From: a virus
Taxonomy: Duplodnaviria > Heunggongvirae > Uroviricota > Caudoviricetes
Direction: 5' to 3' (one strand)
Virus record (IMG/VR): IMGVR_UViG_2531839662_000028
Span: 1 to 19,466 of that record
DNA length: 19,466 nucleotides
The translations under genes and the position numbers were made by a program. The notes beneath the pieces are model-generated. The model worked only from the letters and a program-made list of their open reading frames with translations, searched no databases and was not told the origin of the DNA. Positions 511-15,903 of the stretch are shown here, piece after piece; the first letter of the stretch is position 1, and every line of letters starts with the position of its first letter.

Positions 511-541
511 AAACTAAGTTTACCAAAATTATATGTATATA

Positions 542-554: not shown

Positions 555-618
555 CAAAATAAATCACACCAACTCATATAAACTAGTTGAGTTTATTTGG
601 TTTATGTGACAATGTATA

Positions 619-648
619 AAACAGATAATCAAGACAGATTATCTGTTT
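619..648. promoter_or_regulatory. Perfect 12-bp inverted repeat AAACAGATAATC-(6)-GATTATCTGTTT, candidate operator for a dimeric regulator (Ner or repressor)
   Basis: Read directly from sequence. Lies about 45 bp upstream of the ner start, in the position where Ner/repressor operators lie in Mu-family phages. Confidence 0.5.
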
Positions 649-690
649 TGATAACCCTTTATCATACGCAATATGGTTGATGTGTGAAAG

Positions 691-927
691 ATGAGTAACG
701 ATTGGCATCGGGCTGACGTGATTGCGGCCCTCAAAAAAACAGGAATCCCTCTGGCAAAACTGTCCAGACGTTCAGGTTATTCAACCGGGACACTCGCAAA
801 TGCATTAGTCAGGCCATGGCCCAAAGGTGAACGTATCATTGCTGATGCCTTAAACATGAAACCTGAAGAAATTTGGCCTAGTAGATATCTAAGGGATCAC
901 AATGAGAGAGTGGATATCAGCAATTGA
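691..927 (+). CDS. ner: Ner-like DNA-binding early regulator, 78 aa
   Basis: Small ORF directly downstream of the operator region. Residues [13 protein letters not shown]...TLANAL...WPKGE.IIA.AL...PE.IWPSRY match the Ner family pattern; first gene of the rightward early operon as in Mu. Confidence 0.8.
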
Positions 928-2890
928 GTGTGCGGGTTTATCTGGTTTACCTGGTTCATTAATGGGGATTCACAAAAGGGCACAGAGAGAAGGATGGCTC
1001 AAGAGAAGAAGAGAAGGAATTAAAGGGGTTGCTTATGAATACCATATATCTTCTCTTCCTAACTCTGCCCGAGCTGAGTTTTTGATCCAACAAGGGGGAA
1101 TTGAAACAAGCCTGGGCCGTTTTGAAATCGCCCGCCCCACGCTGGAAGCCCATGATTATGATCGTGAGGCACTGTGGAGCAAATGGGATAACGCCAGCGA
1201 TTCCCAGCGCAGACTTGCTGAAAAATGGTTGCCTGCGGTTCAGGCTGCAGACGAAATGCTGAACCAGGGGATTTCAACGAAAACGGCATTTGCGACCGTT
1301 GCTGGACATTACCAGGTCAGCGCATCCACTTTGCGGGACAAATATTACCAGGTACAGAAGTTTGCGAAGTCTGACTGGGCGGCTGCGCTTGTTGATGGCC
1401 GTGGTGCATCCCGTCGCAACGTTCACAAAAGTGAATTTGACGAGGATGCCTGGCAGTTTCTGATTGCAGATTATCTGCGACCGGAAAAACCCGCCTTTCG
1501 CAAATGTTATGAGCGTCTGGAACTGGCAGCACGTGAGCATGACTGGAATATTCCCTCCCGTGCCACGGCCTTTCGCCGGATTCAGCAACTGGACGAGGCA
1601 ATGGTTGTTGCCTGCCGTGAAGGTGAACATGCACTGATGCATCTGATACCGGCACAGCAACGAACTGTGGAACACCTGGACGCCATGCAGTGGATCAACG
1701 GCGACGGTTATCTGCATAACGTCTTTGTACGCTGGTTTAACGGTGATGTGATCCGCCCGAAAACATGGTTCTGGCAGGATGTGAAAACCCGAAAAATTCT
1801 GGGCTGGCGCTGCGATGTGAGCGAGAACATTGATTCAATTCGCCTCTCGTTCATGGATGTTGTGACTCGCTACGGTATCCCGGAGGATTTTCACATCACC
1901 ATTGATAACACCCGTGGTGCAGCGAATAAATGGCTGACGGGAGGCGCGCCCAATCGTTACCGCTTTAAGGTAAAAGAGGACGATCCAAAGGGACTGTTTT
2001 TACTGATGGGCGCGAAAATGCACTGGACAAGCGTTGTTGCCGGTAAAGGCTGGGGCCAGGCAAAACCTGTTGAACGTGCTTTCGGTGTTGGTGGGCTTGA
2101 GGAATACGTTGATAAGCATCCGGCACTGGCTGGCGCATATACGGGGCCAAATCCGCAGGCAAAACCTGATAACTATGGCGACCGCGCTGTTGATGCAGAG
2201 CTGTTTCTGAAAACCCTTGCCGAAGGTGTGGCGATGTTCAATGCCAGAACAGGCCGTGAAACAGAAATGTGCGGGGGCAAACTCTCGTTTGATGATGTTT
2301 TCGAGCGTGAATACGCCAGAACGATTGTGCGTAAGCCAACCGAAGAACAAAAACGGATGCTGTTACTGCCTGCCGAGGCGGTGAACGTTTCACGCAAAGG
2401 CGAGTTTACGCTTAAAGTTGGCGGCTCCCTTAAAGGCGCGAAAAACGTTTATTACAACATGGCGTTAATGAATGCCGGCGTGAAAAAAGTTGTGGTCAGG
2501 TTTGATCCACAGCAGTTACACAGCACGGTTTATTGTTACACCCTGGACGGTCGGTTTATCTGTGAAGCGGAATGTCTGGCACCTGTTGCATTTAATGATG
2601 CTGCGGCAGGCCGCGAATATCGCCGCCGCCAGAAACAACTGAAATCTGCAACTAAAGCAGCCATTAAGGCGCAGAAACAAATGGACGCACTGGAAGTTGC
2701 TGAACTGCTGCCGCAGATAGCCGAACCAGCAGCGCCAGAATCAAGGGTTGTTGGTATTTTCCGGCCTTCCGGTAACACGGTGCAGGTGAAATACCAGGAA
2801 CCCGATGATGAATATGAAACTGATCGTGATGAATATCTGAATCATTCGCTGGATATTCTGGAACAGAACAGACGTAAAAAAGCCATTTAA
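902..2890 (+). CDS. A: Mu-type DDE transposase A, 662 aa
   Basis: Length and order (c-ner-A-B) as in Mu. N-terminal winged-helix domain resembles the repressor N-terminus. Catalytic triad candidates in Mu-equivalent positions: D268 (codon GAC 1703-1705, INGDGY), D335 (TIDNTRG), E391 (KPVERAF). Start overlaps ner end; AAGGGA lies 7 nt upstream of the ATG. Confidence 0.95.
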
Positions 2891-2928
2891 TTAACGTTTA
2901 AACAAAATTTAATTACGAGGTTATTCAG

Positions 2929-3867
2929 ATGAATATTTCCGATATTCGCGCAGGACTGCGCACGCTTGTAGAAAGTGAAAAAGCGACTTATGCACAAATT
3001 GCACGCGAGTCTGGCGTGGCCGCAGGAACGTTAAGCGCATTCGTGAATAACAAGTACAACGGCGACAATGAACGTGTTGCGCAGACGCTGGAACGCTGGC
3101 TGGAGAACTATCACCGTGCCGCAGAGCTGCCAGAACCACCACGTTTTGTGGAAACCAGAACAGCACGCCAAATCTGGACGAGTATGCGTTTTGCCAGCCT
3201 GACTGAAAGTATTTCTGTTATCTGCGGTAATCCAGGTGTGGGAAAAACTGAAGCGGCCCGCGAATTTCGTCGCACCAATAACAATGTCTGGATGATCACC
3301 ATTACCCCATCCTGTGCCAGTGTTCTGGAATGCCTGACTGAACTGGCTTATGAACTGGGAATGAATGACGCACCACGCCGTAAGGGGCCACTCTCCCGCG
3401 CTTTGAGACGCCGTCTTGAAGGTACGCAGGGGCTGGTCATTATCGACGAAGCTGATCATCTTGGCGCTGAGGTTCTGGAAGAACTCCGCCTGTTACAGGA
3501 GTCCGCCCGTATTGGCCTTGTTCTGATGGGGAATCACCGTGTTTATTCAAACATGACCGGTGGTAACAGAACGGTTGAATTTGCCCGCCTGTTTTCCCGT
3601 ATTGCCAAACGGACGGCAATCAATAAAACCAAAATTGATGATGTAAAAGCCATTGCGGATGCCTGGCAAATTACCGGCGAAAACGAGCGGGAATTATTAC
3701 AGCAGATTGCACAAAAGCCAGGTGCGCTTCGCATCCTGAACCACTCGCTGCGCCTTGCTGCCATGACCGCCCACGGTAAAGGTGAACGTGTTAATGAAGA
3801 TTATCTGCGTCAGGCTTTCCGTGAATTAGACCTCGACGTTGATATTTCAACCCTGCTGCGCACGTAA
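2929..3867 (+). CDS. B: Mu B-type transposition target-DNA activator (AAA+ ATPase), 312 aa
   Basis: 312 aa, immediately downstream of A. Walker A motif GNPGVGKT and a Walker B-like LVIIDEAD are read directly in the translation. Confidence 0.93.
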
Positions 3868-3880
3868 GGAGAGCGAAATC

Positions 3881-4108
3881 ATGATGTCACGGAATATCAA
3901 AATGGCAACGGAAGTAAAGAGCTGGTTACAGGAGCGCGGCAGCCACGTCAACGAATCCTGGCTGGGCGTGGCCCGCCCGGTGCTTGAAATTACCTGCCCG
4001 CCACCGGAGCTGGTCAGAAACGCTGTCAGGATTATGGAGCATAAATCAGGGGTTGCCCGTTCCGTATGGACGGCCCGCCTTAATGGTTGCCAGATTATCT
4101 GGCGTTAA
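3881..4108 (+). CDS. Small early protein in the kil position (Kil-like), 75 aa
   Basis: First ORF after B, as for Mu kil. AGGAG at 3867-3871 precedes the ATG at 3881; the track's longer ORF from 3839 overlaps the B coding end and is less likely. Function assigned by position only. Confidence 0.55.
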
Positions 4109-4140
4109 TAACGGCTTATTTATTTGTGAGGAATAACAAA

Positions 4141-4410
4141 ATGGCAAAAGTAATCTTTGAATTTAACCGCATGGAAGATGTTGAGTTTCAGAAAAAAGGA
4201 GGTTTCTTTGTAGGAATGAGTGTGCAACTGGAAGAACAGTCTCCTAAGGAGCAAACCGGACCGCATGACGTGATGGCAGGCATTATCAAGAGCATGGCTC
4301 CTGAAATTATTGAAAAAGCAACCCAGGAGTTGTTGAAGTCAGCCAGAGAACTTGGGCTGGAAGCCGAAGGCGAGTTATTCCGGTATAACCCGGATGCAGC
4401 CAAACATTAA
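4141..4410 (+). CDS. Hypothetical early protein, 89 aa, acidic
   Basis: ORF with GAGGA-type RBS upstream of the ATG at 4141; the track's longer ORF from 4087 lacks an RBS. Within the semi-essential early block. Confidence 0.55.
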   Translation: MAKVIFEFNRMEDVEFQKKGGFFVGMSVQLEEQSPKEQTGPHDVMAGIIKSMAPEIIEKATQELLKSARELGLEAEGELFRYNPDAAKH

Positions 4411-4427
4411 TTTCAGGGAAGGAGGCA

Positions 4428-4717
4428 TGATGATAATCCCTCGCAAAAGATGGTCACGCGAAGACCGGGAATTTATCGAAGCCAGTGTCGGGAAAATGAC
4501 CGTCGAGGAAATGGCGAAAAAACTGAACGTTGCCCCAACCGCCCTACAGGCACATGCCAGAAGGCACGGAATATCGTTGTGTGCATACCGGGTCAGTGAG
4601 CACGACAAATATTTGTGTCGTGAACTTTATAAAGAAGGGCTGGCTATTCATGTCATTGCCCAAAAGATGGAATTAAGCAATCGTGCTGTATCCAGCATTG
4701 TATACAGCGAATATTAA
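4428..4717 (+). CDS. Hypothetical small protein with helix-turn-helix-like segments, 96 aa
   Basis: GGAAGGAGG RBS at 4417-4425 immediately upstream of the ATG at 4428. Segments MTVEEMAKKLNVAPTALQAHARRHGIS and IHVIAQKMELSNRAV look HTH-like. Confidence 0.55.
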
Positions 4718-4737
4718 TTAACAGGAGCTTTATTTAT

Positions 4738-5262
4738 ATGGCTAAACCAGCAAAACGAATCAAGAGTGCCGCAGCAGCTTATGTTCCGCAATCCCGCGAT
4801 GCCGTGGTGTGTGATATTCGCCGGATTGGTGACCTGCAACGCGAAGCGGCACGACTTGAAACGGAAATGAATGACGCTATCGCTGAAATTACTGAGAAAT
4901 ACGCCTCACAGATTGCGCCCCTTAAAACCAGTATTGAAACCCTTTCAAAAGGCGTTCAGGGATGGTGTGAAGCGAACCGCGACGAACTGACGAACGGCGG
5001 CAAGGTGAAGACGGCGAACCTGGTAACCGGCGATGTGTCATGGCGTCAGCGCCCACCATCGGTAAGTATTCGCGGTGTGGATGCGGTGATGGAAACGCTG
5101 GAGCGTCTTGGCCTGCAACGCTTTATTCGCACGAAACAGGAAATCAACAAGGAAGCGATTTTACTGGAACCGAAAGCAGTCGCAGGTGTCGCCGGAATTA
5201 CAGTTAAATCAGGCATTGAAGATTTTTCTATTATTCCGTTTGAACAGGAAGCCGGTATTTAA
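4738..5262 (+). CDS. gam: Gam-like host-nuclease inhibitor / DNA-end binding protein, 174 aa
   Basis: 174 aa, the Mu Gam length. Translation MAKPAKRIKSAAAAYVPQ...WCEANRDELTNGGKVKTANLVTGDVSWR matches my recollection of Mu Gam. AGGAG at 4721-4725. Confidence 0.88.
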   Translation: MAKPAKRIKSAAAAYVPQSRDAVVCDIRRIGDLQREAARLETEMNDAIAEITEKYASQIAPLKTSIETLSKGVQGWCEANRDELTNGGKVKTANLVTGDVSWRQRPPSVSIRGVDAVMETLERLGLQRFIRTKQEINKEAILLEPKAVAGVAGITVKSGIEDFSIIPFEQEAGI

Positions 5263-5304
5263 TACCACCATTAATATTTAATTAGTTCACTTTCTTTTAA
5301 TTAT

Positions 5305-5334
5305 GGCGCGATGCGTCAGGGGATTGCTCGCGCC
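5305..5334 (+). other. GC-rich hairpin (GGCGCGA / TCGCGCC, 16-nt loop) in the gam-downstream spacer, no T-tract
   Basis: Inverted repeat read directly from sequence in the 98-bp gap. Could be an RNA processing/stability element or protein site; not a canonical intrinsic terminator. Confidence 0.3.
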
Positions 5335-5360
5335 TGAAACAGATTACTGAGGAATAAAAA

Positions 5361-5903
5361 ATGGTTGATGCAAAAGTTCTGAATGGTGTCAGCACATTAT
5401 TACGGGCTTACGGGCGTCTGACCTGCGGGGTTCTGGCTGAAAAAATGAATATGCTGCCCTCGTCAATGGTGTATTTCCTGCGTGATGCGGTTGATGCCGG
5501 AGTTCTCACTGAATGTAACGGATTTTATGACGTTCCGCGCCCTCGTCCAACGCCGCCAGTAAGACGAAACGCAACAACGGAACACCCCGCTGTTGATAAT
5601 GCTCAATGGTGCGCGTTCCGCCGCTCTTTGCCCTGGCTGGAAGGCAATGCCATTCCGGCATTGGCAAAAGAATTTGCGACAGGCGTACTGACCTGCGAGT
5701 CGGTTTACATCGTTGCTGAAGTGGATGACGAGATGTGCAAACAGGGGATGCCCCGTTTTGTGATGGCGTATATCGATATCCGGCTGGGGCGCTTTATTTG
5801 TGGTTCCAGTGGCTGGAATATCACCGACCACGTCATGCGCTATCTCATTCTTGATTATTCACCAGCTCCGGCAGCAACACAGGAAGTCAGTGAACATGAT
5901 TAA
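5361..5903 (+). CDS. Hypothetical early protein, 180 aa
   Basis: ORF with GAGGA RBS (5349-5353) 7 nt upstream of the ATG; enterobacterial-type codon usage; no recognisable catalytic motif. Confidence 0.6.
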   Translation: MVDAKVLNGVSTLLRAYGRLTCGVLAEKMNMLPSSMVYFLRDAVDAGVLTECNGFYDVPRPRPTPPVRRNATTEHPAVDNAQWCAFRRSLPWLEGNAIPALAKEFATGVLTCESVYIVAEVDDEMCKQGMPRFVMAYIDIRLGRFICGSSGWNITDHVMRYLILDYSPAPAATQEVSEHD

Positions 5904-6078
5904 GTCAATTGGCTTTGTCCTGCTGGTTGGCACCTGCGGGAGTGATGCCTGTGATGCTATCCCGGCAACAGAAAAAATCTGGCCCACAGAGCAGGCATGT
6001 ATGCAGGTGATGGAGCGCATACAAAAACGTTATCCCAGTGGAATCTTTTATTGCGAAGAGGTATTACGAAATGAGTAA
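5896..6078 (+). CDS. Small predicted secreted or lipoprotein-like protein with four cysteines, 60 aa
   Basis: Internal ATG at 5896 overlaps the stop of the preceding gene. N-terminus MIKSIGFVLLVGTCGSD resembles a signal peptide with a non-canonical lipobox-like LVGTC. Confidence 0.45.
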   Translation: MIKSIGFVLLVGTCGSDACDAIPATEKIWPTEQACMQVMERIQKRYPSGIFYCEEVLRNE

Positions 6079-6433
6079 GCATATTTATTACGACCCTAAA
6101 TATCGGGCTGAAATGCGGGCGCAACTGGTTGTCAGTGGATATACACCGGAGCAGGCCGATACAACTCTGACAGAACTGATGGGTGAGCTTCCATTTGATG
6201 AAGCTGAATATGAATACTGGCTGAAGCAGTTCAGGCTGGAAATTCTGGAAAACACCACACTGCCATCGCTGATAAGAATAATAAAAAGCGTTATCGACAA
6301 TGCCTGCTACAACGGTGATTGCTTGGCCGCAGCAATTGCGACCCATGCTCTGGTGAATCTGCTGGAGGTTACCGGCGCAGTTTTCCTGAATCCTGAAAAG
6401 GTATTAAGAGATGAAAATACAGATGATTACTGA
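6071..6433 (+). CDS. Hypothetical acidic small protein, 120 aa
   Basis: ATG at 6071 overlaps the preceding stop. AT-rich relative to flanking genes; D+E clearly exceeds K+R. No recognisable motif. Confidence 0.55.
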   Translation: MSKHIYYDPKYRAEMRAQLVVSGYTPEQADTTLTELMGELPFDEAEYEYWLKQFRLEILENTTLPSLIRIIKSVIDNACYNGDCLAAAIATHALVNLLEVTGAVFLNPEKVLRDENTDDY

Positions 6434-6746
6434 TGCTGATTTAATGGCTGCAACCTTAATTTCCAGTGGCATGTCAGAACAAAAGGTAAATGATTTCCTG
6501 GATAATGTCGTATACCAGCACTATGAGCAGGCCAGAGAAAATTTAATTTCAGAAAAGCGCACGATGATTGCTGAATCATTAAGCCCTGCATGGATTATCG
6601 AAGAGTTGCGGGGAATCATTGCCAGTCAGGATAAAGTGGCGGCAGTTGCCGCCCTTGATGTGCTACAGCGAATGAGTAAAGAGCTATTCAACACTGAATT
6701 AATTTTAAAATCCGGGGGACATAATGAATCGCACATCCCTGATTAA
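6411..6746 (+). CDS. Hypothetical acidic small protein, 111 aa
   Basis: ORF overlapping both neighbours by ~23 nt; AT-rich; about 20 acidic versus 10 basic residues. Confidence 0.55.
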   Translation: MKIQMITDADLMAATLISSGMSEQKVNDFLDNVVYQHYEQARENLISEKRTMIAESLSPAWIIEELRGIIASQDKVAAVAALDVLQRMSKELFNTELILKSGGHNESHIPD

Positions 6747-7275
6747 ATTAATTCATGTTGCACGTCGGGAGTTGCAACTTGACGATGACACTTACCGCGC
6801 TTTTCTGGTGCAGTGCACGGGCAAAACCAGTTGTCGCGAGCTGTCCGTTGCACAACTGGAACAAGTGCTCGATGCCATGAAAGAGCGCGGTTTTAAGAAA
6901 CAGAAAAAATATCCCCGCCGTCGTTTTAAGGGGCATGTCACACCACGCGAGAAGATTTACAAAATCTGGCAGCAGATGTTTCTTGACGGTTTCGTCTCCG
7001 ATATCAGCGACGCTGCGCTGGACAAATACGTTGAGCGCCTGACAGCCAGACGTAATGGCGGACAGGGTGTTTCCACGCTGGCATGGTGTCACGGGGAATC
7101 GTTGCAGGTTGTGCTTGAAACGCTCAAACAGTGGCATATGCGCTGCATCCGTGAAGCCTTTGCCCGACATGGTGTGCCTTTACCTGTGAGCGAAACCGGG
7201 CGGGAGCTGCGCGGCTATGATGCACTGACCAGTGCGTATGCCCGCGCACGAAACAGCGGGAGAATTGCTGTATGA
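6724..7275 (+). CDS. gemA: GemA-like gene expression modulator (DUF1018-type), 183 aa
   Basis: 183 aa, directly upstream of and overlapping mor (ATGA overlap) as in Mu. Translation MNRTSLIKLIHVARRELQLDDDTYRAF... fits the GemA family pattern as I recall it. Confidence 0.8.
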   Translation: MNRTSLIKLIHVARRELQLDDDTYRAFLVQCTGKTSCRELSVAQLEQVLDAMKERGFKKQKKYPRRRFKGHVTPREKIYKIWQQMFLDGFVSDISDAALDKYVERLTARRNGGQGVSTLAWCHGESLQVVLETLKQWHMRCIREAFARHGVPLPVSETGRELRGYDALTSAYARARNSGRIAV

Positions 7276-7682
7276 AACAGATGAAAGAGCAGGATTTATT
7301 CGAAGACTTCCGGGACGACAGCGTTCTGGAATATCTTCACGATTATCAGGAAAAATATGTTTACCCGGCGCTACTTTCAGAACTGAATGCTCTGTTGCGA
7401 CAGGAACTGATAAGGCTTGGGGTTAACCCGGTCCATTCCCTTGAGTTGGTAGTGGCGATTTGTAATCATATCGGTGGGATTCAGGTATATGTTCCTAAAG
7501 GGAAAATACTGGAAAATCTTATCAGAGACATGCGCATCTGGCGTGATTTTGATGGGAAAAACGTAGCGGAACTGGTGCAGCGTTACAAAGTGACATACAA
7601 AACGGTATATCAAGCTATCAAAAGAATGCGAAGGCTGGAGCGTGGAAAATATCAAATGCAACTGTTTAAGGATGAGTCATGA
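7272..7682 (+). CDS. mor: Mor/C-family transcription activator (Mor by synteny), 136 aa
   Basis: Acidic N-terminus and C-terminal HTH (...NVAELVQRYKVTYKTVYQAIKRMRR...) typical of Mor/C activators. Position immediately after gemA. Confidence 0.85.
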   Translation: MKQMKEQDLFEDFRDDSVLEYLHDYQEKYVYPALLSELNALLRQELIRLGVNPVHSLELVVAICNHIGGIQVYVPKGKILENLIRDMRIWRDFDGKNVAELVQRYKVTYKTVYQAIKRMRRLERGKYQMQLFKDES

Positions 7683-8158
7683 AATACTTTCCTCTTATAC
7701 TTTTACTGAGCGTATTTTGCGCTAATGCGGCAAAGTTGCCAGCTGAAGATGTCATCAAAAAACGTCTGACAGAAAAAGATCTCATTGCACTAAATAGCTG
7801 GAAGCCTCTTAAGGGAGGCGATTCTATTAAGAACGGTGGAACTGAAACTGCTCACAGCAAATTCGGGGTATTTACGATCAATAATAAAGTCGTCAGCTCA
7901 AGGACGACGGTAAAGGATTTTGAAAACAATCCTTCAGGTGTGTTGTCTTCCTTTGTAGCATGCTCGCGGGTTGCAGAGTCAGCAATTGGTGAACTAACAG
8001 AGAAGCAGCAGAAACGAATTATTGACATGGTAGTTTCAGCTACAAAAGTTGAAGGGTATGGGTTAACTGACGTGATACAGGGTTTTCTCATGCAAACCAA
8101 ATTTCTCAAGATGGGTAACGATATGGTAATAGATTGCTCCATCAAAGGAGATGAGTAG
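7679..8158 (+). CDS. Secreted protein of unknown function, 159 aa (moron-like cargo)
   Basis: N-terminal signal peptide MKYFPLILLLSVFCANAA. Visibly lower GC than flanking genes. ATGA overlap with the mor stop; followed by a strong intrinsic terminator. Confidence 0.7.
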   Translation: MKYFPLILLLSVFCANAAKLPAEDVIKKRLTEKDLIALNSWKPLKGGDSIKNGGTETAHSKFGVFTINNKVVSSRTTVKDFENNPSGVLSSFVACSRVAESAIGELTEKQQKRIIDMVVSATKVEGYGLTDVIQGFLMQTKFLKMGNDMVIDCSIKGDE

Positions 8159-8177
8159 TTATCTTCCCTTAATTCAA

Positions 8178-8203
8178 TGAAGCCGGTAAATCCGGCTTTT
8201 TTT
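8178..8203 (+). terminator. Intrinsic terminator-like hairpin + T7 tract (TGAAGCCGG-TAAAT-CCGGCTTTTTTT), copy 1 of a repeated element
   Basis: 7-bp GC-rich stem, 5-nt loop, seven Ts, 20 nt after the stop of the secreted-protein gene and 56 nt before the endolysin start. Identical 26-mer recurs at 15904-15929. Confidence 0.65.
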
Positions 8204-8258
8204 ATGCCTCCGGCACCATGAAGCAGACCACGTTTAACTCTGCTTCACAGGTGTTTTT

Positions 8259-8846
8259 ATGGAAAATCAAAAATTCTCCCCGGCCTTTGAACATGCGCTG
8301 AATTTTATTCTGCGTCCTGATATCGAAGGCGTTTATGTCAATGACCCCACTGACCGTGGCGGTGAAACCAAATACGGCATTTCTGACCGCCGCGACGGTG
8401 TGATTGACGGCAAAACCGATGTCAGCGGTGACGGCAAACCGGATACCCGCATCAAAGATTTAACCCGCGAACAGGTCGCGCAGATTTACTGGCGCGATTA
8501 CTGGCTGCCTGCCGGATGTGACCAGTGGCCTGATGGCGTGGCGATGTTTGTTTTCGATGCAGCGGTTCAGCATGGCGTTAAAAAAGCCATCAAAATTTTG
8601 CAGGAAGCCACTGATATCAATGCCGATGGCATCATCGGCCCGCGCACCCGCAGGGCCGTGAACCTGGCTGACCAGAACTGGTTGCTGACCCGCTGTATTG
8701 TCCGTCGTTCCCGCTTTTATGCCGAAATCATCAAATCAAAACCCGCCCAGGGCAAATACCTGAACGGCTGGTTTAACCGCATGGAAAAACTGACCGACGC
8801 CTGTCTGGAAATCATCGACAACGCGCCGTCCACCACGCGGGGGTGA
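8259..8846 (+). CDS. Endolysin, GH108-type muramidase with C-terminal peptidoglycan-binding domain, 195 aa
   Basis: N-terminal motif EGVYVNDPTDRGGETKYGI matches the GH108 signature; C-terminal DGIIGPRT resembles the peptidoglycan-binding module. No signal peptide or TM segment. Confidence 0.85.
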   Translation: MENQKFSPAFEHALNFILRPDIEGVYVNDPTDRGGETKYGISDRRDGVIDGKTDVSGDGKPDTRIKDLTREQVAQIYWRDYWLPAGCDQWPDGVAMFVFDAAVQHGVKKAIKILQEATDINADGIIGPRTRRAVNLADQNWLLTRCIVRRSRFYAEIIKSKPAQGKYLNGWFNRMEKLTDACLEIIDNAPSTTRG

Positions 8847-8847
8847 T

Positions 8848-9099
8848 ATGGGCAAAGGCTGGGATGCCTCACTGAAAGCCGGGCGGCGTGACCGCCTGCG
8901 TCAGGAGGTTCTGCACCGCATGGCCGGAGGTCCGTCCCCGAAACCGCTGGACTATACCGGCCATGACGGCACACACGCCAGCTACTACATGCGTGGCTGG
9001 AACTCCGTGGATACACGGGACATTTTCTGGCAGTGCCAGAAGTACAGGGAAAAATTCAATGTGGAAAAAGGTAATGAACAAAATTTTAAAACTGTGTGA
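8848..9099 (+). CDS. Hypothetical basic protein in lysis cassette, 83 aa
   Basis: ATG 2 nt after the endolysin stop; good enterobacterial codon usage (CTG, GCC, AAA) through most of the ORF; no TM segment. Confidence 0.45.
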   Translation: MGKGWDASLKAGRRDRLRQEVLHRMAGGPSPKPLDYTGHDGTHASYYMRGWNSVDTRDIFWQCQKYREKFNVEKGNEQNFKTV

Positions 9100-9484
9100 C
9101 TGGCTGCTTTGTTCCCGACTGATGAGAACCCCATGGCCGCTGGCCGGACTGACACTCTGCATGTTCATCATCAGCATGTTATGTGGCTGGCGATCGTTCG
9201 TGTTGATGTTGTTGTCCTTTGCCGGGGTGGTGTTGTTTTCATACAGCGCAAGCCTCGGGAATGTGCCATTTCGCCTGCTGCCTGAGGTCCGTTACCGGGC
9301 TTTTGGTCGCCACATCATCGTGTGGTCATGGGTGGTCTGGGCGCTGGGATATTTCTGCTGCGTCTTCAGCACGCTGATGATGGTGTCACCGGTGCATCCG
9401 GTGTTCTGGCTGTGTGGTGGCTGTTGCGGCGGTCTGCTCTGTCTTCAGCGTTATCTGTATGGAGGTTTCCCGTGGATCCGTTAA
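9059..9484 (+). CDS. Multi-pass membrane protein (about four TM segments), Cys/Trp-rich; candidate holin, 142 aa
   Basis: Only + frame covering 9100-9470 with host-like codon usage. Hydrophobic segments PWPLAGLTLCMFIISMLCGW, FVLMLLSFAGVVLFSY, IIVWSWVVWALGYFCCVF, VFWLCGGCCGGLLCL. Start at internal ATG 9059 (AGGGA upstream) chosen because the upstream part of the track ORF overlaps the better-supported frame-1 gene. Confidence 0.55.
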   Translation: MWKKVMNKILKLCDWLLCSRLMRTPWPLAGLTLCMFIISMLCGWRSFVLMLLSFAGVVLFSYSASLGNVPFRLLPEVRYRAFGRHIIVWSWVVWALGYFCCVFSTLMMVSPVHPVFWLCGGCCGGLLCLQRYLYGGFPWIR

Positions 9485-10080
9485 CCCTTTCAGGCATCGC
9501 CTCTGTTCTGCTGAAAGCCGGGCCGGGGCTGATTCGTTCCGTCGGGCGCTGGTTTGGTGGCAGTACATCTGCCGCCGCTGACTCGGTGGCCGGTATGGTG
9601 GAAAGCGTCCGGGAAAGCCTTCCCGTTGCTGAACAGCAACGCATTCTGGAACAAAAACTGGTGATGCTGTCACCGGAGCAACTGGTGCAACTGGAAACCC
9701 TGAAAATTCAGCTGCAACAGCTGGAGGTGGAACGGCAGAAGCTGGTGCTGGCTGACCAGCAGGCCGCACACCACGAACAGCAGGAAACCATCCGCAATGG
9801 TGACAACGCCACGGACAGCTATGTGCGCCAGACACGCCCGCTGCTGGCCCGCCTTTCCTGTTACAGCAGTCTGGCCTATGTGCTGTTGCTCTCCTGCGGC
9901 CAGATTGCCGGAGCCATTGCCGGTGCCAGAGGTATCACGCTGCATATGCCATCACCGGACTGGGATATCACGCTGATGTTGCTTACCCCGGCGCTGGGCT
10001 ATCTCGGTGTAAGAACCCTTGACGGCTTTGCCCGTTACAGCAAATCAAGCCGTCACAAAATGTCTGCGGGGCCGAAATGA
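9472..10080 (+). CDS. Membrane-associated coiled-coil protein, lysis-associated candidate (spanin- or holin-like), 202 aa
   Basis: GTG start at 9472 preceded by GGAGG (9462-9466). Hydrophobic N-terminus, Q/E/L-rich coiled-coil middle, C-terminal hydrophobic segments. Confidence 0.5.
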   Translation: MDPLTLSGIASVLLKAGPGLIRSVGRWFGGSTSAAADSVAGMVESVRESLPVAEQQRILEQKLVMLSPEQLVQLETLKIQLQQLEVERQKLVLADQQAAHHEQQETIRNGDNATDSYVRQTRPLLARLSCYSSLAYVLLLSCGQIAGAIAGARGITLHMPSPDWDITLMLLTPALGYLGVRTLDGFARYSKSSRHKMSAGPK

Positions 10081-10304
10081 CCGACGAAATCGATCGCATC
10101 AGTGAAGTGGTTCTGAACGAGCGTCAGAGCGTCGTTAAAGCCTGGCAGACACGGACAAAAGAAACGCCCCACAGCCGGGGCTTCTGCAATGACTGCGGGA
10201 ACGTTATTCCGGCACAGCGCCTTGCGGCGCTGCCGGATGTGGTGACCTGTATTGACTGTCAGCAGATGCGGGAACGCAGGAGGAAAACGTGTCCTGGGAA
10301 ATGA
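10077..10304 (+). CDS. TraR/DksA-family C4 zinc-finger protein, 75 aa
   Basis: CxxC-x16-CxxC arrangement (CNDCGN...CIDCQ) in a ~75-aa protein, characteristic of TraR/DksA-like zinc fingers. ATGA overlap with the preceding gene. Confidence 0.75.
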   Translation: MTDEIDRISEVVLNERQSVVKAWQTRTKETPHSRGFCNDCGNVIPAQRLAALPDVVTCIDCQQMRERRRKTCPGK

Positions 10305-10594
10305 TCAGAGCCAACTGGCCCATTCTGTGGGCATTGCTGATGACAGGAATAAACCTGCTTCAGTTGATTCTGGCAAAGACCTACGTCAAGCGCGAAGAGT
10401 TTGATTTGCTGCGTTCCCGCGTGTCGGTGATGGAAAGCCAGGTACATCAGCTACCTGATCGTGATGAGTTCCACCGCCTGCAACTGGATATCAGCAACCT
10501 GCGGGGAGAAATCAAAGAGCTGGGGCCATCCATCCGCCAGGTATCCCGCATCAGCGATTTGTTATTAGAGAACGAGTTAAAGGAAAAAAATTAA
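10289..10594 (+). CDS. Small membrane-anchored coiled-coil protein (Mu gp25-like by position), 101 aa
   Basis: GTG start at 10289 preceded by AGGAGG (10278-10283). One N-terminal TM segment (WPILWALLMTGINLLQLIL) followed by a coiled coil. Confidence 0.6.
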   Translation: MSWEMIRANWPILWALLMTGINLLQLILAKTYVKREEFDLLRSRVSVMESQVHQLPDRDEFHRLQLDISNLRGEIKELGPSIRQVSRISDLLLENELKEKN

Positions 10595-10887
10595 TGGCGA
10601 TGAAAGAGATCCTCACTGAAGACCGTCGTCTGGTGTTGCTGCGTTCCCTGCTGGATTGTGGCGACAGTGCGAATGAATCCGTGTTGCAGACCTGCCTTCA
10701 GGCCTACGGTCATAAGGTATCCCGTGATGTGGTGCGCACCCAGCTTGCATGGCTGCGCGAGCAGGGGCTGGTTCGTCTGTCTGATGTGGGCGGCTGTTAC
10801 GTGGCTGAAATCACCGGCAGCGGCGAGGATGTGGCAAACGGCCTGTCCAGCGTTCCGGGCGTTAAAAAACCCCGTGCGAGGGACTGA
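10594..10887 (+). CDS. Hypothetical protein, 97 aa
   Basis: ORF with ATG overlapping the preceding TAA; host-like codon usage; part of the co-directional late block before terminase. Confidence 0.6.
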   Translation: MAMKEILTEDRRLVLLRSLLDCGDSANESVLQTCLQAYGHKVSRDVVRTQLAWLREQGLVRLSDVGGCYVAEITGSGEDVANGLSSVPGVKKPRARD

Positions 10888-10889
10888 GC

Positions 10890-11189
10890 ATGGCCCGAAA
10901 ACTGAAGCCGTTAAGTCGCGGAGAACGGGCCGTCGTGCGGCAACTGGCGTACTGCCTTGTGCTGGCAGATATTGAGCAAAACGCCATTGTCCGTGCATAC
11001 GAACAACAGACCGGAAAGCCCTGGAACCCGGATGCACCGGATACCCCCATGAAACGTGCCCTGCGTTCATCACCGGCATGTGCGCGGCTGTGGAAGCTGC
11101 TGGGTAAGGATATCCGCTCCGTTCGCGAAGAAATATACGCCGGTCTGAAAACACCGGGAACTGAAGACGGGGGCCGTCGTGAACCGTAA
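10890..11189 (+). CDS. Hypothetical protein, 99 aa
   Basis: ORF with GAGGGA RBS 8 nt upstream of the ATG; host-like codon usage. Confidence 0.6.
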   Translation: MARKLKPLSRGERAVVRQLAYCLVLADIEQNAIVRAYEQQTGKPWNPDAPDTPMKRALRSSPACARLWKLLGKDIRSVREEIYAGLKTPGTEDGGRREP

Positions 11190-11326
11190 AAAGAATCCGA
11201 TAAGTAAAGCGTCCCGTGATGAACTCCGCCGTCTGGCGCACAACCTGACATGGCGGGAAATCCAGAGCGGCGCACTGAAATCTGCATACGAAAGTTTACA
11301 GCGTAGTGAGCAACAGGAGGGCACAC

Positions 11327-11908
11327 ATGGAAAATGAACAACGCCCCACCCGTGGCCGTCTTTCCAAAGTGGATTTACTCCCGGACAGCATCCGGGAGCA
11401 GTTGCATCAGATGCTGCGGGAAAAGCGGCACACGCAGGAAGAAATCCGCGAAGCCATCAACGCCCTGATTGACGAACACAACCTGCCGGAAGAGATGCAG
11501 TTAAGCCGGACGGGCTTAAACCGCTATGCCATCCGCATGGAAAAAGTCGGGGCAAAAATCCGTGCCTCCCGCGAAATGGCCGAAGTCTGGGCGGCAAAGC
11601 TGGGTTCCGCGCCGACGTCAGACGTCGGCAAACTGCTGATGGAGTTTGTAAAAACGCTGGCTTTTGAAACGTCCATGTCGATGGCAGAAGACGACAAGCC
11701 CGTTGCACCGAAGGCGCTGGGGCAACTGGCGCTGGTTGCCCAGCGTCTGGAAGCGGCAGCCATGACCAGCCATAAACGCGAGAAAGCGATCCGTGATGCG
11801 TTTGCGCAGGAGATGGCAGAGAAAACCGAAGAACTGGTCAGAACGGGCGGTCTGTCAGGCGGTGCGGCTGACACCATCAAACGAGACATTCTGGGGATTA
11901 GCGTATGA
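11327..11908 (+). CDS. Terminase small subunit-like protein (Mu gp27 position), 193 aa
   Basis: Immediately upstream of and overlapping the large terminase. AGGAGG at 11315-11320 supports the ATG at 11327 rather than the track's upstream start at 11306 (GTG). Confidence 0.65.
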   Translation: MENEQRPTRGRLSKVDLLPDSIREQLHQMLREKRHTQEEIREAINALIDEHNLPEEMQLSRTGLNRYAIRMEKVGAKIRASREMAEVWAAKLGSAPTSDVGKLLMEFVKTLAFETSMSMAEDDKPVAPKALGQLALVAQRLEAAAMTSHKREKAIRDAFAQEMAEKTEELVRTGGLSGGAADTIKRDILGISV

Positions 11909-13440
11909 CACAAATGGATACGTTCAGTGAATATGATGTTCTGCTGCCGTATCAGAAACGCTGGGTGGCGGATGATGCCGACCTGAAAATTGCCGAGAAA
12001 TCCCGCCGTACCGGTTTAACCTGGGCGGAAGCGGCGGATGCGGCACTGACGGCATCACTGAAGAAGGAAGACGGCGGGCGCGATCACTTTTATATCGGTT
12101 CGAATAAGGAGATGGCCCGCGAATTTATCGACGCCGTGGCGATGTGGGCGAAAGCGTTTAATGCGGCAGCGGAAGAAATCTGCGAGGAAGTGATCACCGA
12201 CGAAGACAAGGACATTCTGACGTTCGTCGTGTACTTCGCCAGCGGTTTTAAGGTCAAGGCATTGTCCAGCAACCCGAGCAACATTCGCGGGATGCAGGGG
12301 AATGTCACCATCGACGAGGCCGCGTTCCATGAAAAACTGGACGAGCTGCTGAAGGCTGTGCTGCCGCTGAAAACATGGGGCGGCAAAATTCGCCTTATTT
12401 CCACCCATGACGGCGTGGACAACCTGTTTAACCAGCTGATTCAGGAAAGCCGCGCGGGCAAAAAAGATTACAGCATTCACACCATCACGCTGGATGACGC
12501 CTGCAATGACGGGCTGTACCGGCGTATCTGTCAGGTGCGCGGCATGGTGTGGTCACCGGAAGCCGAAGCGGAATGGAAAGAAGGTCTGCTGCGAAATACC
12601 GCCACCCGCGAAGACGCACTGGAAGAATATTACTGCGTCCCGAAAAACGGCGGCGGCACGTATATCCCCCGCTCACTGCGTGAACGTGCGGCCCGTGGCA
12701 CCGGGAAAGTGTTGCGCTTTACCGGCACACCGGAATTTAACGCACTGACGGAAAGCCAGCGCCGGGCAGATATCCGGGAATGGCTGGAAACAGTGGTGCG
12801 CCCTGAACTGGAAAAACTCCCGAAGAACCTGCGCCACTGTCTGGGGGAAGACTTTGCGCGTTCGGGTGACCTGACCGTACTGGCCCCGGTGACGGTGAAC
12901 GATGACACCACCCGCGAGGTGCCGTTTCTGGTTGAGCTTGGCAATGTGCCGTTTAAACAGCAGGAGCAGGTGCTGTTCTGGCTTTGCGATCGTCTGCCCC
13001 GCCGTGACGGCATCAAAATGGATGCGCGGGGGAATGGTCAGTATCTGGCAGAACAGGCGGCGGAGCGGTACGGCGACGAAGTGGAACAGGTGATGCTGTC
13101 CGTGGCGTTCTACCGCGAAAACATGCCCCGTTTCCGTGCGGCGTTTGAAGATGATGAGCTGATCCTTCCGAAGCATGAAGACGTGATCAATGACCTCGGG
13201 GCCATTCAGTTACTGCGTGGCGTTCCCGGCATTGATGATTCACGAACCCGTGGCAGCGACGGTCACAAACGTCACGGCGACGCCGCTGTGGCCATTTTCC
13301 TGGGCTTCCTGGCCAGCAAGGATGACTGCCACCGTTACGAACTGCACCGCCTGAACCGCCCGGCGAAACCGGAAGAACGCAACGCGCGCCGCCAGATGAA
13401 GCTGACGCGCGGCCTGAAAAATGAGGGAGGTTTACTGTGA
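11905..13440 (+). CDS. Terminase large subunit (Mu gp28-like), 511 aa
   Basis: 511-aa protein between small terminase and portal; overall resemblance to Mu-like large terminases; ATGA overlap with the upstream gene. Confidence 0.88.
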   Translation: MTQMDTFSEYDVLLPYQKRWVADDADLKIAEKSRRTGLTWAEAADAALTASLKKEDGGRDHFYIGSNKEMAREFIDAVAMWAKAFNAAAEEICEEVITDEDKDILTFVVYFASGFKVKALSSNPSNIRGMQGNVTIDEAAFHEKLDELLKAVLPLKTWGGKIRLISTHDGVDNLFNQLIQESRAGKKDYSIHTITLDDACNDGLYRRICQVRGMVWSPEAEAEWKEGLLRNTATREDALEEYYCVPKNGGGTYIPRSLRERAARGTGKVLRFTGTPEFNALTESQRRADIREWLETVVRPELEKLPKNLRHCLGEDFARSGDLTVLAPVTVNDDTTREVPFLVELGNVPFKQQEQVLFWLCDRLPRRDGIKMDARGNGQYLAEQAAERYGDEVEQVMLSVAFYRENMPRFRAAFEDDELILPKHEDVINDLGAIQLLRGVPGIDDSRTRGSDGHKRHGDAAVAIFLGFLASKDDCHRYELHRLNRPAKPEERNARRQMKLTRGLKNEGGLL

Positions 13441-15008
13441 ACCTGAAACAACTGGCCGGGGCCGTTCGCCGTCTGCTGAACCCGGCAACCGGTGAGGAAG
13501 ACACACTGAAAAAAGAGGCGCTCAACGAAGCACAGGCCCGTCCGCGTCATGCCGGTGTGCGTTCGGCCTCGCCGGGTATCAGCGTCGCCTCCGGGCTGAA
13601 CCCCGGCAGGCTGGCAGGCATTCTGCGCAATGCCGCCGACGGCATCACACGTGATTTTTTTATCCTTGCTGAAGAGATGGAAGAACGCGATTTGCATTAC
13701 GCCTCGGTGCTGCGCACCCGCAAGCTGACGGTGGCGGGTATCGAACCGGTGGTGGTGGCCGCCAGTGATGACGATGCTGACGTGCAACTGGCGGACGCCA
13801 TCCGTGCGCTGATGGAAGCCCCGCAAATCCCTGAGCTGATGTTTGATTTGCTCGACGGGCTGGGAAAAGGCGTGGCGGTCTGTGAAATCCTGTGGGACAC
13901 CCGCAACAACCACTGGATGCCCCGTGATTATGAATGGGTTGATCCCCGTTTTCTGAAAGCCGAAAAACCCACGCTGCACCAGTTCCGCCTGCTGACTGAC
14001 GATGAACCGGTGGATGGCGTACCGCTGACACCGGGAAAATTCATTGTTCACCAGCCGCGCCTGAAATCCGGTCTGCCGTTGCGTAACGGTCTGGCCCGTC
14101 TGGTGGCGGTGATGTACATGCTGAAATCCTTTACCGTGCGCGACTGGTGGGCATTCGCGGAAAAATTTGGCATTCCGGTCACGGTGGGGAAATACGGTCC
14201 CAACGCCACGGAGGAGCAAATCCGCGTACTGATTGATGCGATTGCCTCCATTGCCTCGGATGCCGGGTGTGCCATTCCGCAGTCCATGCAACTGGAAATG
14301 AAGGAAACCGCCAGCAGGAATAACGGCGGCGCACTGTTCCGTGAAATGGCGGAATGGTGTGATGCACAAATCAGTAAGGCTGTGCTGGGGCAGACCATGA
14401 CCACGGATAACGGCAGTTCGCGTTCACAGGCGGACGTGCACAATCAGGTGCGCATGGACATTGTGCGCTGGGACGCGCGGCAGCTGGCTAACACGCTGAA
14501 TGAATATCTGGTACGCCCCTACATTGAGGCCAACTACGGGCCACAGGCGCACTACCCCCGTGTTGTTCTGCGTATCAGTGAAGCGGAAGATTTGAAGGCG
14601 CTGACAGACGCTCTGGTGCCACTGATTGACCGGGGGATGCGGGTTCAGGAATCGGAGCTGCGGGACCGGTTCGGCCTGGCTGAACCGGACGACGGGGCTG
14701 ATGTTCTGCATCCGGTGTCTGCCGGAATGTCAGGTGATATGGCGATGAACCGCGAGCGCGTCGCCCTGAACCGTGAACACCCCGATGAACTGGCACAGAT
14801 GGTGGATGATGCCCTGCGTGACTGGCAGAAAACCGGCGAGGCGTTCACGAACCCGGTGCTGACACTGGCGCAGGAATGCGACAGTTTTGATGACTTTCTG
14901 AAACGTCTGCCTGAGCTTCAGGAAACGCTGAACGCGGACGACTTTGCCCTGCAACTGGCGGAGGTGTGCTTTAAGGCGCGTGTGCTGGGGGACACTGCTC
15001 ATGCGTGA
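13437..15008 (+). CDS. H: Portal protein (Mu gp29/H-like, DUF935-type), 523 aa
   Basis: 523-aa protein following terminase. GTG start at 13437 preceded by GAGGGAGG (13423-13430), overlapping the terminase stop. Confidence 0.85.
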   Translation: MNLKQLAGAVRRLLNPATGEEDTLKKEALNEAQARPRHAGVRSASPGISVASGLNPGRLAGILRNAADGITRDFFILAEEMEERDLHYASVLRTRKLTVAGIEPVVVAASDDDADVQLADAIRALMEAPQIPELMFDLLDGLGKGVAVCEILWDTRNNHWMPRDYEWVDPRFLKAEKPTLHQFRLLTDDEPVDGVPLTPGKFIVHQPRLKSGLPLRNGLARLVAVMYMLKSFTVRDWWAFAEKFGIPVTVGKYGPNATEEQIRVLIDAIASIASDAGCAIPQSMQLEMKETASRNNGGALFREMAEWCDAQISKAVLGQTMTTDNGSSRSQADVHNQVRMDIVRWDARQLANTLNEYLVRPYIEANYGPQAHYPRVVLRISEAEDLKALTDALVPLIDRGMRVQESELRDRFGLAEPDDGADVLHPVSAGMSGDMAMNRERVALNREHPDELAQMVDDALRDWQKTGEAFTNPVLTLAQECDSFDDFLKRLPELQETLNADDFALQLAEVCFKARVLGDTAHA

Positions 15009-15765
15009 AACTCTCATCCCGAAAGAGGCGCTGGCGTGGCTGAAGGCGAAGAAGCTGCGCCCCGGTTTTGATTACCGGGATGTATGGCGGGAAGAGCACC
15101 GGAACAGCTTCACCGTGGCAAAAATGCTGCAACTGGATTTGTTGTCGGATGTGAAAGCCCTTGTGGAAGACGCCCTGCAAAGCGGGCAGACGTTCAGCGA
15201 GTTCCGGGAGGCGCTGCAACCGCTGCTGATAAAACGCGGATGGTGGGGCGTTCAGGAGATGGATGATCCGCTGACGGGCGAAAGGCGCACCGTGCAACTG
15301 GGCAGCGACCGCCGCCTCCGCACGATTTTTGATACCAACATGCGCACCGCCCGCGCGGCGGGCCAGTGGGAACGCATTCAGCGGACAAAGCGGGCCATGC
15401 CGTATCTGATTTACGAGCTGGGACCATCCCGCGAGCACCGGGCGGAGCATGTGAAATGGGCGCGTCTGTGTCTGCCGGTAGATCATCCGTTCTGGCAGAC
15501 GCATTTCGCCCCTAACGGCTGGGGCTGCAAATGCACCATCCGTCAGGTCAGCCGTGGTGAATATGCGCAACTGGCGGCACAGGGCACCATTCACACCGAA
15601 GCGCCGGAAATCAGAACTGTCCGCTGGGTGAACAAACGCACGGGCGAAGAGGAAGAGGTGCCGGAAGGGATTGATCCGGGCTGGAACTACAATCCCGGTA
15701 TAAACCGTGAGCAGGAGCTGGTGCGCCAGCTGGCGACAAAACAGGCCCGTTTTGACAGTGAGTAA
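15001..15765 (+). CDS. F: Head morphogenesis protein, Mu F-like (shorter than Mu F), 254 aa
   Basis: Position directly after portal; start taken at ATG 15001 overlapping the portal stop. Family assignment rests mainly on synteny and is tentative. Confidence 0.65.
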   Translation: MRETLIPKEALAWLKAKKLRPGFDYRDVWREEHRNSFTVAKMLQLDLLSDVKALVEDALQSGQTFSEFREALQPLLIKRGWWGVQEMDDPLTGERRTVQLGSDRRLRTIFDTNMRTARAAGQWERIQRTKRAMPYLIYELGPSREHRAEHVKWARLCLPVDHPFWQTHFAPNGWGCKCTIRQVSRGEYAQLAAQGTIHTEAPEIRTVRWVNKRTGEEEEVPEGIDPGWNYNPGINREQELVRQLATKQARFDSE

Positions 15766-15788
15766 CCCTCCCGCCGTAAATCCCCCTG

Positions 15789-15812
15789 AAACGCATCAGA
15801 AACGCGTTTTTT
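15789..15812 (+). terminator. Intrinsic terminator candidate after F (AAACGC-atcagaaac-GCGTTT followed by T-run)
   Basis: 6-bp stem, 9-nt loop, then TTTTTT, about 25 nt after the F stop; overlaps a larger imperfect palindrome TCAGAA...TTCTGA. Confidence 0.5.
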
Positions 15813-15840
15813 ATTCTGATGGCGTGAATGTGCATTCTGA

Positions 15841-15882: not shown

Positions 15883-15903
15883 GGGGTATTTCCCCGTTTT
15901 CAG

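Follow-up and report, generated by a model that had tools for sequence, protein, structure and literature searches.

A repeated Pm-type element, with a predicted Mor box overlapping a terminator-like hairpin, before two operons of a Mu-like Escherichia coli prophage

The window analysed here, a stretch of 19,466 nucleotides (nt) that corresponds to positions 1 to 19,466 of the IMG/VR record IMGVR_UViG_2531839662_000028, is a Mu-like E. coli prophage. Its plus strand carries twice the 26-mer TGAAGCCGGTAAATCCGGCTTTTTTT, at 8178-8203 (copy 1) and at 15904-15929 (copy 2). Copy 1 is located where the early operon ends, and copy 2 after the operon of the lysis, terminase, portal and F genes; each is followed by the first gene of the next operon. 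The genes and features on which the argument rests are as follows.

6724-7275: gemA; the gene order gemA-mor is as in Mu
7272-7682, plus strand: mor, the last conserved gene of the early operon and the sole Mor/C-family activator gene of the prophage
7679-8158, plus strand: a variable accessory open reading frame (ORF) of 159 amino acids (orf159), between mor and copy 1
8176-8191, plus strand: predicted Mor box of copy 1, AATGA-AGCCGG-TAAAT, predicted positions -51 to -36, 13 of 16 bases identical to the Mu Pm site
8179-8203, plus strand: terminator-like hairpin of copy 1, at the early operon end (stem 8179-8186 with 8192-8199, loop 8187-8191, T-run 8197-8203)
8214-8219, plus strand: predicted -10 hexamer of copy 1, CACCAT, with a predicted start near A8227, placed by reference to Mu +1 = 9224
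8259-8846, plus strand: GH108 endolysin (Pfam Glyco_hydro_108 and PG_binding_3), the first gene after copy 1
8848-9099, plus strand: homolog of Mu gp18, 69% identical to Mu gp18, which is the first gene of the Mu middle operon
ending at 15765: lysis and packaging genes, portal gene and F
15902-15917, plus strand: predicted Mor box of copy 2, AGTGA-AGCCGG-TAAAT, predicted positions -51 to -36, 14 of 16 bases identical to the Mu Pm site
15905-15929, plus strand: terminator-like hairpin with T-run of copy 2, after the lysis/terminase/portal/F operon
15940-15945, plus strand: predicted -10 hexamer of copy 2, CATACT, with a predicted start near G15953; it aligns with CAAACT of Mu PI
15979-16941, plus strand: gene I, Mu-like protease/scaffold (Pfam Mu-like_Pro, E = 5.4e-45), the first gene after copy 2
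16941-17843: T, the major head protein gene

A scan of the window allowing up to three mismatches found exactly these two copies of the 26-mer. The number of matches expected by chance was 0.00, and none of 200 dinucleotide shuffles contained two or more. The identical stretch is part of a longer gapless repeat of 52 nt with 85% identity (8164-8215 versus 15890-15941); beyond the identical 26 nt the flanks of the copies are about 70% similar. The ATG codons that follow, at 8259 (the GH108 lysin) and at 15979 (the Mu I-type protease), are situated 55 and 49 nt past the T-run. The exact repeat at these two sites, the similarity of the flanks and the distance to the first ATG had all been reported in the initial annotation, and they hold.

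In RNA folding both copies formed an 8-bp stem with five G-C pairs and a 5-nt loop, followed by U residues (7 T in the DNA). The fold energy was -12.6 kcal/mol for each copy, with z = -3.2 for copy 1 and z = -3.7 for copy 2, and none of 200 shuffles was equally stable. For copy 2 the value of -12.6 kcal/mol is that of the centroid, and the minimum free energy is -12.8 kcal/mol. Both copies were listed as terminator-like by a consensus scan, copy 1 with its hairpin 20 nt past the stop codon of orf159 and copy 2 with its hairpin 139 nt past that of F. The hairpin would act as a terminator in one direction, the opposite strand having no T-run. With the GC-rich stem, the short loop, the run of T, the position at operon ends and the single orientation the element resembles intrinsic terminators. 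No canonical sigma-70 promoter was predicted near either copy by consensus scan, and Rfam gave no family match across the window at gathering thresholds.

The closest known counterpart is the middle promoter Pm of Mu. Mu carries TAAAGCCGGTTAATCCGGCTTTTTTT at 9175-9200, 5 nt past the mor stop codon; it matches the 26-mer of the window except at 2 of 26 positions, and when the whole Mu genome was scanned the element was seen nowhere but at Pm. The Mor site of Pm extends from -51 to -36, is centred at -43.5 and consists of 5-bp inverted repeats around a G/C-rich 6-bp spacer; the Mor footprint covers -56 to -36, and the promoter has a -10 hexamer and no -35 (PMC4390567, PMC4287176). Bases adjoining the dyad on its downstream side are also critical for activation (PMC2582627). 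The literature, a recent cryo-electron microscopy preprint included, describes how Mor recruits sigma-70 RNA polymerase to this promoter that has no -35. The sequence GTAAAC, given for -57 to -52 of Pm (PMC4390567, Table 3), is found at Mu 9167-9172. Therefore, Mu +1 is 9224, the Mor site is AGTAA-AGCCGG-TTAAT (9173-9188) and the -10 is TATCCT (9211-9216).

When this mapping is transferred to the window, the spacing from the box to the -10 hexamer is 22 nt in Mu Pm, in copy 1 and in copy 2 alike. The -35 region of the copies reads CCGGCT, and the 3' arm of the hairpin together with the T-run would occupy the region from -35 to -24. The dyad centre at -43.5 was derived from the spacing to the predicted starts. 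The equivalents of -57 to -52, the place of an A/T-rich proximal UP subsite in Pm, TAATTC (8170-8175) and GTTTTC (15896-15901), are A/T-rich and unlike the Mu GTAAAC in sequence.

By homology to the mapped Mu site, the predicted Mor box is an imperfect 5-6-5 dyad, A(A/G)TGA-AGCCGG-TAAAT, formed by the loop and the 5' arm of the hairpin together with the 5' flank. It is offset from the palindrome GCCGG..CCGGC and is not that palindrome itself. The suggestion that the dyad doubles as the activator site thus holds in part: the predicted activator site overlaps the hairpin, while the palindrome itself is not the site, the mapped Mu site being offset from it. Unlike in ordinary intrinsic terminators, the DNA that encodes the hairpin would double as an activator site and as the -35 region of the next promoter. 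An overlap of this kind may hold for Mu too, where the early terminator, called 't9.2', presumably overlaps Pm, as judged from the Mu sequence.

The window element shares with Mu Pm 24 of 26 bases, the 22-nt spacing to a weak predicted -10, the apparent lack of a -35, and the overlap of box and hairpin. Copy 1 shares its place too, after mor and before the gp18 homolog. It differs by the accessory ORF between mor and the element and by the arms of the box, with TGA for TAA and TAAAT for TTAAT. Judged by the order mor, element, (GH108), gp18, copy 1 is the positional ortholog of Pm. Of the earlier view that both copies stand before late operons, copy 1 asks for a revision, since it is orthologous to the Mu middle promoter and not to the Mu late lys promoter.

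Copy 2 is, on the evidence of the alignment, the ortholog of the Mu late promoter PI with a Mor box in place of the C box. The F/G-I intergenic regions align, and the promoter cores are nearly the same (CCTTCCGCATACTGAC in the window, CCTCCCGCAAACTGAC in Mu PI). Upstream of the core Mu has the C-type box CATAACCCCAG, and the window has a Mor box there. Neither copy has a C-type box (of the ccATAAcCcC type) in its -35 region; both are Mor-type. Copy 2 and Mu PI have in common the genomic place, the spacer, the -10 and a hairpin downstream. More generally, the copies resemble the C-dependent late promoters of Mu (Plys, PI, PP and Pmom) in the 16-bp imperfect dyad, with its predicted centre at -43.5, followed by a predicted -10 and with no apparent -35. 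They differ from these promoters in the absence of a C gene and in the box, which is Mor-type with the G/C spacer AGCCGG and not ccATAAcCcC. Also unlike the copies, the Plys, PI and Pmom regions of Mu have no hairpin of this kind.

The region ahead of copy 2 has further features of its own.

15800-15900, plus strand: Mu G-I-like intergenic region, adjoining copy 2, aligned with Mu 17857-18070 and five relatives

In Mu, the G-I region contains the strong gyrase site, with the cut annotated at 17879/80. The window has at about 15800-15900 repeated GTTTTTGAAG and TTAAACGCG-like motifs, and the region is conserved in all relatives examined. Two extra small hairpins were seen between F and I, at 15882-15895 (GGGGGTATTTCCCC then GTTTTCAG) and at 15790-15826 (AACGCATCAGAA..TTCTGATGGCGT), which makes three stem-loops within 215 nt ahead of gene I.

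Which activator would act at these boxes depends on the gene content. The mor product matches Pfam Mor (PF08765, E = 1.6e-29) and shares 59% identity with Mu Mor and 31% with Mu C. For comparison we used two complete relatives, the copy in E. coli UMNF18 (L001) and an intact relative fetched for this purpose (L002), along with Mu itself (L003). UMNF18 is 99.2% identical over window positions 1-17870, after which the alignment stops; its copy has an annotated truncated tail-sheath gene. A profile hidden Markov model (HMM) of Mor and C found one ORF of the family in the window and in each of the two complete relatives, and two in Mu, the positive control. With this HMM and with tblastn, no C activator gene was found in the window or in the two complete relatives. 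Since the prophage has Mor and lacks C, Mor would act as its late activator. The initial annotation had named a Mor-family protein as the candidate; given that the element is a near-copy of the Mor-dependent Pm, this is very probably right.

The early region of the prophage matches Mu, D108 and SfMu at about 90% identity, and the late region has no close match among deposited phage records. The start codon of orf159 overlaps the mor stop codon (ATGA), so the two genes appear translationally coupled. The orf159 product has no Pfam match, and its sole PHROG match is phrog_38744, of unknown function. In relatives the slot holds unrelated ORFs or none; for example, the element is 62 nt past mor in L017-L028. 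The lysis/packaging operon includes a DksA/TraR-like C4 zinc-finger ORF of 75 amino acids (10077-10304), whose product may bind RNA polymerase and modulate late transcription. When the lysis-operon ORFs and orf159 were scanned with PHROG and Pfam for some other late activator, this DksA-like zinc finger was the only candidate; orf159 is not conserved among relatives.

Further relatives were collected via Mor homologs and comprised six loci from Raoultella, Pluralibacter, Klebsiella and Kluyvera and 80 IMG/VR loci. We observed two architectures among the fetched loci, the Mu type with C (24 loci) and the C-less type of the window. The 24 Mu-type loci have a single Mor box directly 3' of mor, then gp18 or GH108 and gp18, then C; no Mor box was found before gene I in any of these 24. 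The C-less loci, on the other hand, have the Mor box, the intact hairpin and a T-rich tail at the lysin-gene site in 52 cases out of 52. A Mor box was also present 71-94 nt upstream of gene I in all 46 C-less loci that reach this gene; 43 of the boxes fit the strict pattern and three have one spacer substitution.

The position of the -10 is nearly constant, 22 nt past the box or 23 nt at the gene I sites without a hairpin. Across the sites of the relatives A2 and T6 of the hexamer are invariant in all its variants (CACCAT, CACTAT, CAAAAT, CAATAT, TAAATT, CATGAT, CACACT, CATACT and GACACT); at gene I the hexamer is CATACT, CACACT or GACACT.

The terminator half of the element was more variable before gene I. 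Among the 46 loci, 23 have the hairpin and the T-tail, three have the hairpin with a poor tail, and in about 20 both are gone (for example, AGCCGG-TTAAT-CCACC-TGAGTCC). The gene I hairpin is also maintained by two independent compensatory changes, AACCGG/CCGGT in L005 and AGGCGG/CCGCC in L068 and L074. Where the gene I terminator is present, its pairing thus appears to be selected. At all the lys/Pm sites the stem is invariant and therefore uninformative on whether pairing or sequence is conserved. What never varies is the Mor box with its -10; the terminator is constant where the early operon ends and may be missing ahead of gene I. Since about 20 of 46 gene I sites have no terminator, termination there would not be essential; and since the Mor box is never lost at this site and the terminator often is, the promoter and not an insulator would be the invariant function.

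Raoultella L004 and Kluyvera L007 carry the same 26-mer at both sites, and the identity of their I proteins to that of the window is only about 61%. Because these loci keep it in spite of such divergence, the identity of the two copies points to purifying selection and not to a recent copy. The arm and loop variants of the box nearly always match between the two sites of one genome (TG, GG or TA on the left, TAAAT or TTAAT on the right), a pattern that fits recognition by one co-evolving Mor. We also compared the recognition helix of Mor with the box variant: AIRR went with TTAAT in three of four cases and AIKR with TAAAT in five of five, and L006 combined AIKR with TTAAT, too weak a relation to use.

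Two side observations concern the Mu-type loci. A GH108 homolog, 73% identical to that of the window, is located between Pm and gp18 in some loci that have both C and the Mu lysozyme (L036, L043, L048, L055, L064, L070, L072 and L073), so the order Pm-GH108-gp18 is not confined to the C-less clade. In L041 the Pm element is partly duplicated at 2414-2500 (AGCCGGTTAATCCGGGAATCCGGCTTTTTTTACGCCCTCAATGCCGGTTAATCCGGCTTTTTTT), which indicates that the element can duplicate locally.

The initial annotation had suggested that more copies of the hairpin may exist before the tail genes beyond the window. We searched UMNF18 and L002 with the 26-mer, the 20-mer core and the 18-mer box at up to three mismatches, and no further hairpin copy was found in these two complete relatives beyond the two known sites. 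The sole extra candidate was a Mor box without a hairpin, located beyond the window inside the baseplate gene V (L002 31827-31873, equivalent to L001 25919-; TCAGGGAAAACGGTAAAT). It reads AGGGA-AAACGG-TAAAT and is followed by TATTAT 23 nt later. Its position weight matrix (PWM) score was 19.1, compared to 28 at the true sites and at most 11 elsewhere; the best of 50 shuffles reached 18.8. Among relatives with V proteins of 58-98% identity, 43 of 45 keep the candidate. Identity at synonymous codons over the box was 0.87-0.96 against 0.64 gene-wide, the top value among well-populated 6-codon windows. The gene V box is probably a late promoter that sits within a gene and serves those for baseplate and tail fibres; a location inside a coding gene is also known for Mu PP. 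Farther downstream in UMNF18, the region upstream of com/mom (L001 31666-31790) contains GATTAAATACCCCCAGCCCTCCGGGCGG, faintly like a C-type box; in Mu, mom is activated by C, which is absent here.

We consider it likely that the two copies are Pm-type Mor-activated promoters fused to intrinsic terminators and serving a two-step cascade. The homology, the conserved geometry, the gene content and the conservation among relatives are seen in the sequences; that Mor binds, where transcription starts and that it terminates is inferred from them. Transcription of the early genes, begun at the left end, would stop at the copy 1 hairpin. Mor, a product of the early operon, would then bind the 16-bp box centred 43.5 bp upstream of the start, overlapping the terminator DNA, and recruit sigma-70 RNA polymerase to a promoter that lacks a -35 and has a weak -10, with predicted starts near 8227 and near 15953. 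The copy 1 promoter would serve the lysin/gp18/terminase/portal/F operon, ending at the copy 2 hairpin, and the copy 2 promoter the I/T head operon, perhaps on through the tail genes, and the third box inside V may boost the baseplate and fibre genes. Mor would be the late activator, and the programme would pass from early to late in two steps compared to three in Mu. In Mu, a single copy of the element drives the middle operon that encodes C; here two copies, plus possibly the third one with no hairpin, would drive late lysis, head and possibly tail genes. Of the earlier idea of a late promoter insulated by a terminator, there is indeed a terminator-shaped hairpin directly before what is predicted to be an activator-dependent promoter, but the gene I terminator is dispensable in about half of the relatives. 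As to function the initial annotation was largely correct; it erred on the bases that make up the activator site and on the further hairpin copies.

Several points weigh against this interpretation. The -10 hexamers of the window are weak, with 3/6 and 4/6 matches to TATAAT. The box arms differ from those of Mu, as described above, and recognition by the Mor of the window is assumed. The terminator is missing at about 20 of the 46 gene I sites, and in the clade of the window the gene I hairpin could be kept partly for promoter reasons. The gene for the DksA-like zinc finger could encode an additional regulator. Besides, no Mor box was found before com/mom in UMNF18 (PWM score <8), so it may be doubtful that Mor controls every late transcript.

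The most serious rival takes the hairpin and the T-run for a by-product of the needs of a Pm-type promoter, with no useful termination. The critical role of the bases just downstream of the Mor dyad in Mu would agree with it, as would the gene I sites that presumably work with neither hairpin nor T-run. Still, we find it unlikely: the structure has the textbook shape of an intrinsic terminator in stem, loop and T-run, the hairpins are placed exactly at two operon ends, and the two compensatory changes preserve pairing rather than sequence. Moreover, the gene I sites that have no hairpin have lost the T-run as well, so both behave as a unit that the promoter does not need. The opposite reading, in which the copies do no more than terminate the operons before them, and read-through or other promoters account for the expression of the genes that follow, accords with the result of the terminator scan and with the lack of a predicted canonical sigma-70 promoter nearby. 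It is nevertheless very unlikely, given that at gene I the box is invariant (46/46) and the hairpin is not (about 26/46), that a -10-like hexamer with invariant A2 and T6 stays at a fixed 22-23 nt in all variants, and that the element differs little from a promoter defined by experiment as Mor-dependent. In addition C, the usual late activator, is absent, and the late genes need some promoter.

A recent duplication or gene conversion between the sites would make the identity historical and not selected. We regard this as highly improbable. Although 26 nt are identical while the flanks are about 70% similar, and the loop and arm variants are usually shared by both sites of a genome, the same 26-mer occupies both sites in the loci of Raoultella and Kluyvera, whose proteins are 60-70% identical to those of the window, and co-evolution of the two sites with one Mor would lead to concerted change just as well. 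Finally, the palindrome GCCGG-N5-CCGGC, being a perfect inverted repeat, might be an operator for another dimeric regulator, a repressor or a host factor, in line with the first proposal of the dyad as a binding site. Footprint and mutations in Mu, however, map the activator site to the offset dyad at -51 to -36, and at half of the gene I sites the 3' half of the palindrome is gone and the offset box persists; we give this reading almost no weight.

Besides the terminator-like hairpin, a second hairpin is predicted downstream of each copy, close to the ribosome site of the first gene.

8212-8255, plus strand: hairpin from the -10 hexamer to the lysin Shine-Dalgarno AGGTG (8212-8217 with 8250-8255; 8219-8227 with 8239-8247)
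15948-15970, plus strand: hairpin CCGTCG/CGACGG just past the copy 2 -10, with its 3' arm overlapping the gene I Shine-Dalgarno GGAG

The fold energy of the 8212-8255 hairpin was -18.8 kcal/mol (z = -3.8). In general, the 5' arm covers roughly -15 to +1, and the 3' arm ends on or beside the Shine-Dalgarno. We found an equivalent hairpin at 12 of 12 diverse lys/Pm sites with quite different sequences; z was -2.9 or lower at nine of them, -2.0 to -2.3 at two and -0.9 at Mu Pm. The gene I leader helix was 80% paired, compared to 20-37% when slid, and its covariation was 0.164 against 0.099 in shuffled alignments, a value that none of 500 reached. This covariation was computed from an anchored alignment of the arms; RNAalifold on a plain MAFFT alignment gave only 4 pairs. 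The counterparts in Mu (L003) are at 9214-9252 and 18022-18050. For Mu Pm, folding of the segment up to and including the gp18 start codon predicts a stem whose 5' arm stops precisely at -1 relative to the start determined by experiment.

From read-through RNA to Mor-started RNA the predicted accessibility of the ribosome site rises from a mean of 0.41 to 0.57, with a rise in 17 of 21 sites. Also in 17 of 21 sites, the ribosome site is less accessible with the native 5' segment than with shuffled ones. At the two sites of the window itself the effect was absent and not significant, and the outcome as a whole is mixed. The conserved hairpins suggest a translational gate, a lead rather than a finding, in which read-through RNA would mask the ribosome site and RNA started by Mor, from which the 5' arm would be missing, would not.

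Such a gate is known in phage T4. In the gene for lysozyme (e), in soc and in gene 49, translation is blocked on read-through early RNA and allowed on late RNA that starts inside the hairpin. The sites described here are similar in having a conserved hairpin from the -10 to the Shine-Dalgarno or AUG of the first late gene and a predicted start at the end of the 5' arm. They differ from T4 gene e in that here we have a computational hint, with the accessibility effect at 17 of 21 related sites and not at the two of the window. A three-layer module, made of the terminator, the Mor box and the ribosome-site hairpin, in which leaked RNA could not be translated into lysin or protease and Mor-started RNA could, is a possibility that we hold tentatively and with considerable doubt. 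If it were true, the three layers and the loss of C would give a self-contained two-step programme with no premature lysis in a widespread clade of transposable phages, and the same gate would be present, unnoticed, at Pm and PI of Mu.

The early/middle/late cascade of Mu, driven by Mor and then by C, is a textbook example of how a phage times its genes. The Pm-type element itself is known and well studied, and no new kind of mechanism is described here. What appears undescribed in the papers searched is the presence of the Pm-type element at the late operons of a widespread clade that lacks C, and the replacement of the C box of PI by a Mor box. In this literature we found no description of Mor-only Mu-like prophages of E. 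coli or of their promoters, nor any experimental work on this prophage lineage.

In practical terms, the element offers an annotation rule for late promoters in such prophages, and the natural box variants (TG, GG and TA arms; TAAAT or TTAAT) would be useful for work on Mor specificity. One short sequence would serve at once as a terminator, an activator site and a -35 region. The comparison with Mu gives a natural example of the swapping of activator sites at orthologous promoters with the core promoter kept. For the biology of the group, the data indicate that C has been lost from a common clade of Mu-like prophages, found in E. coli, Klebsiella, Raoultella, Kluyvera and Pluralibacter, and that Mor boxes stand directly at the late operons of this clade.

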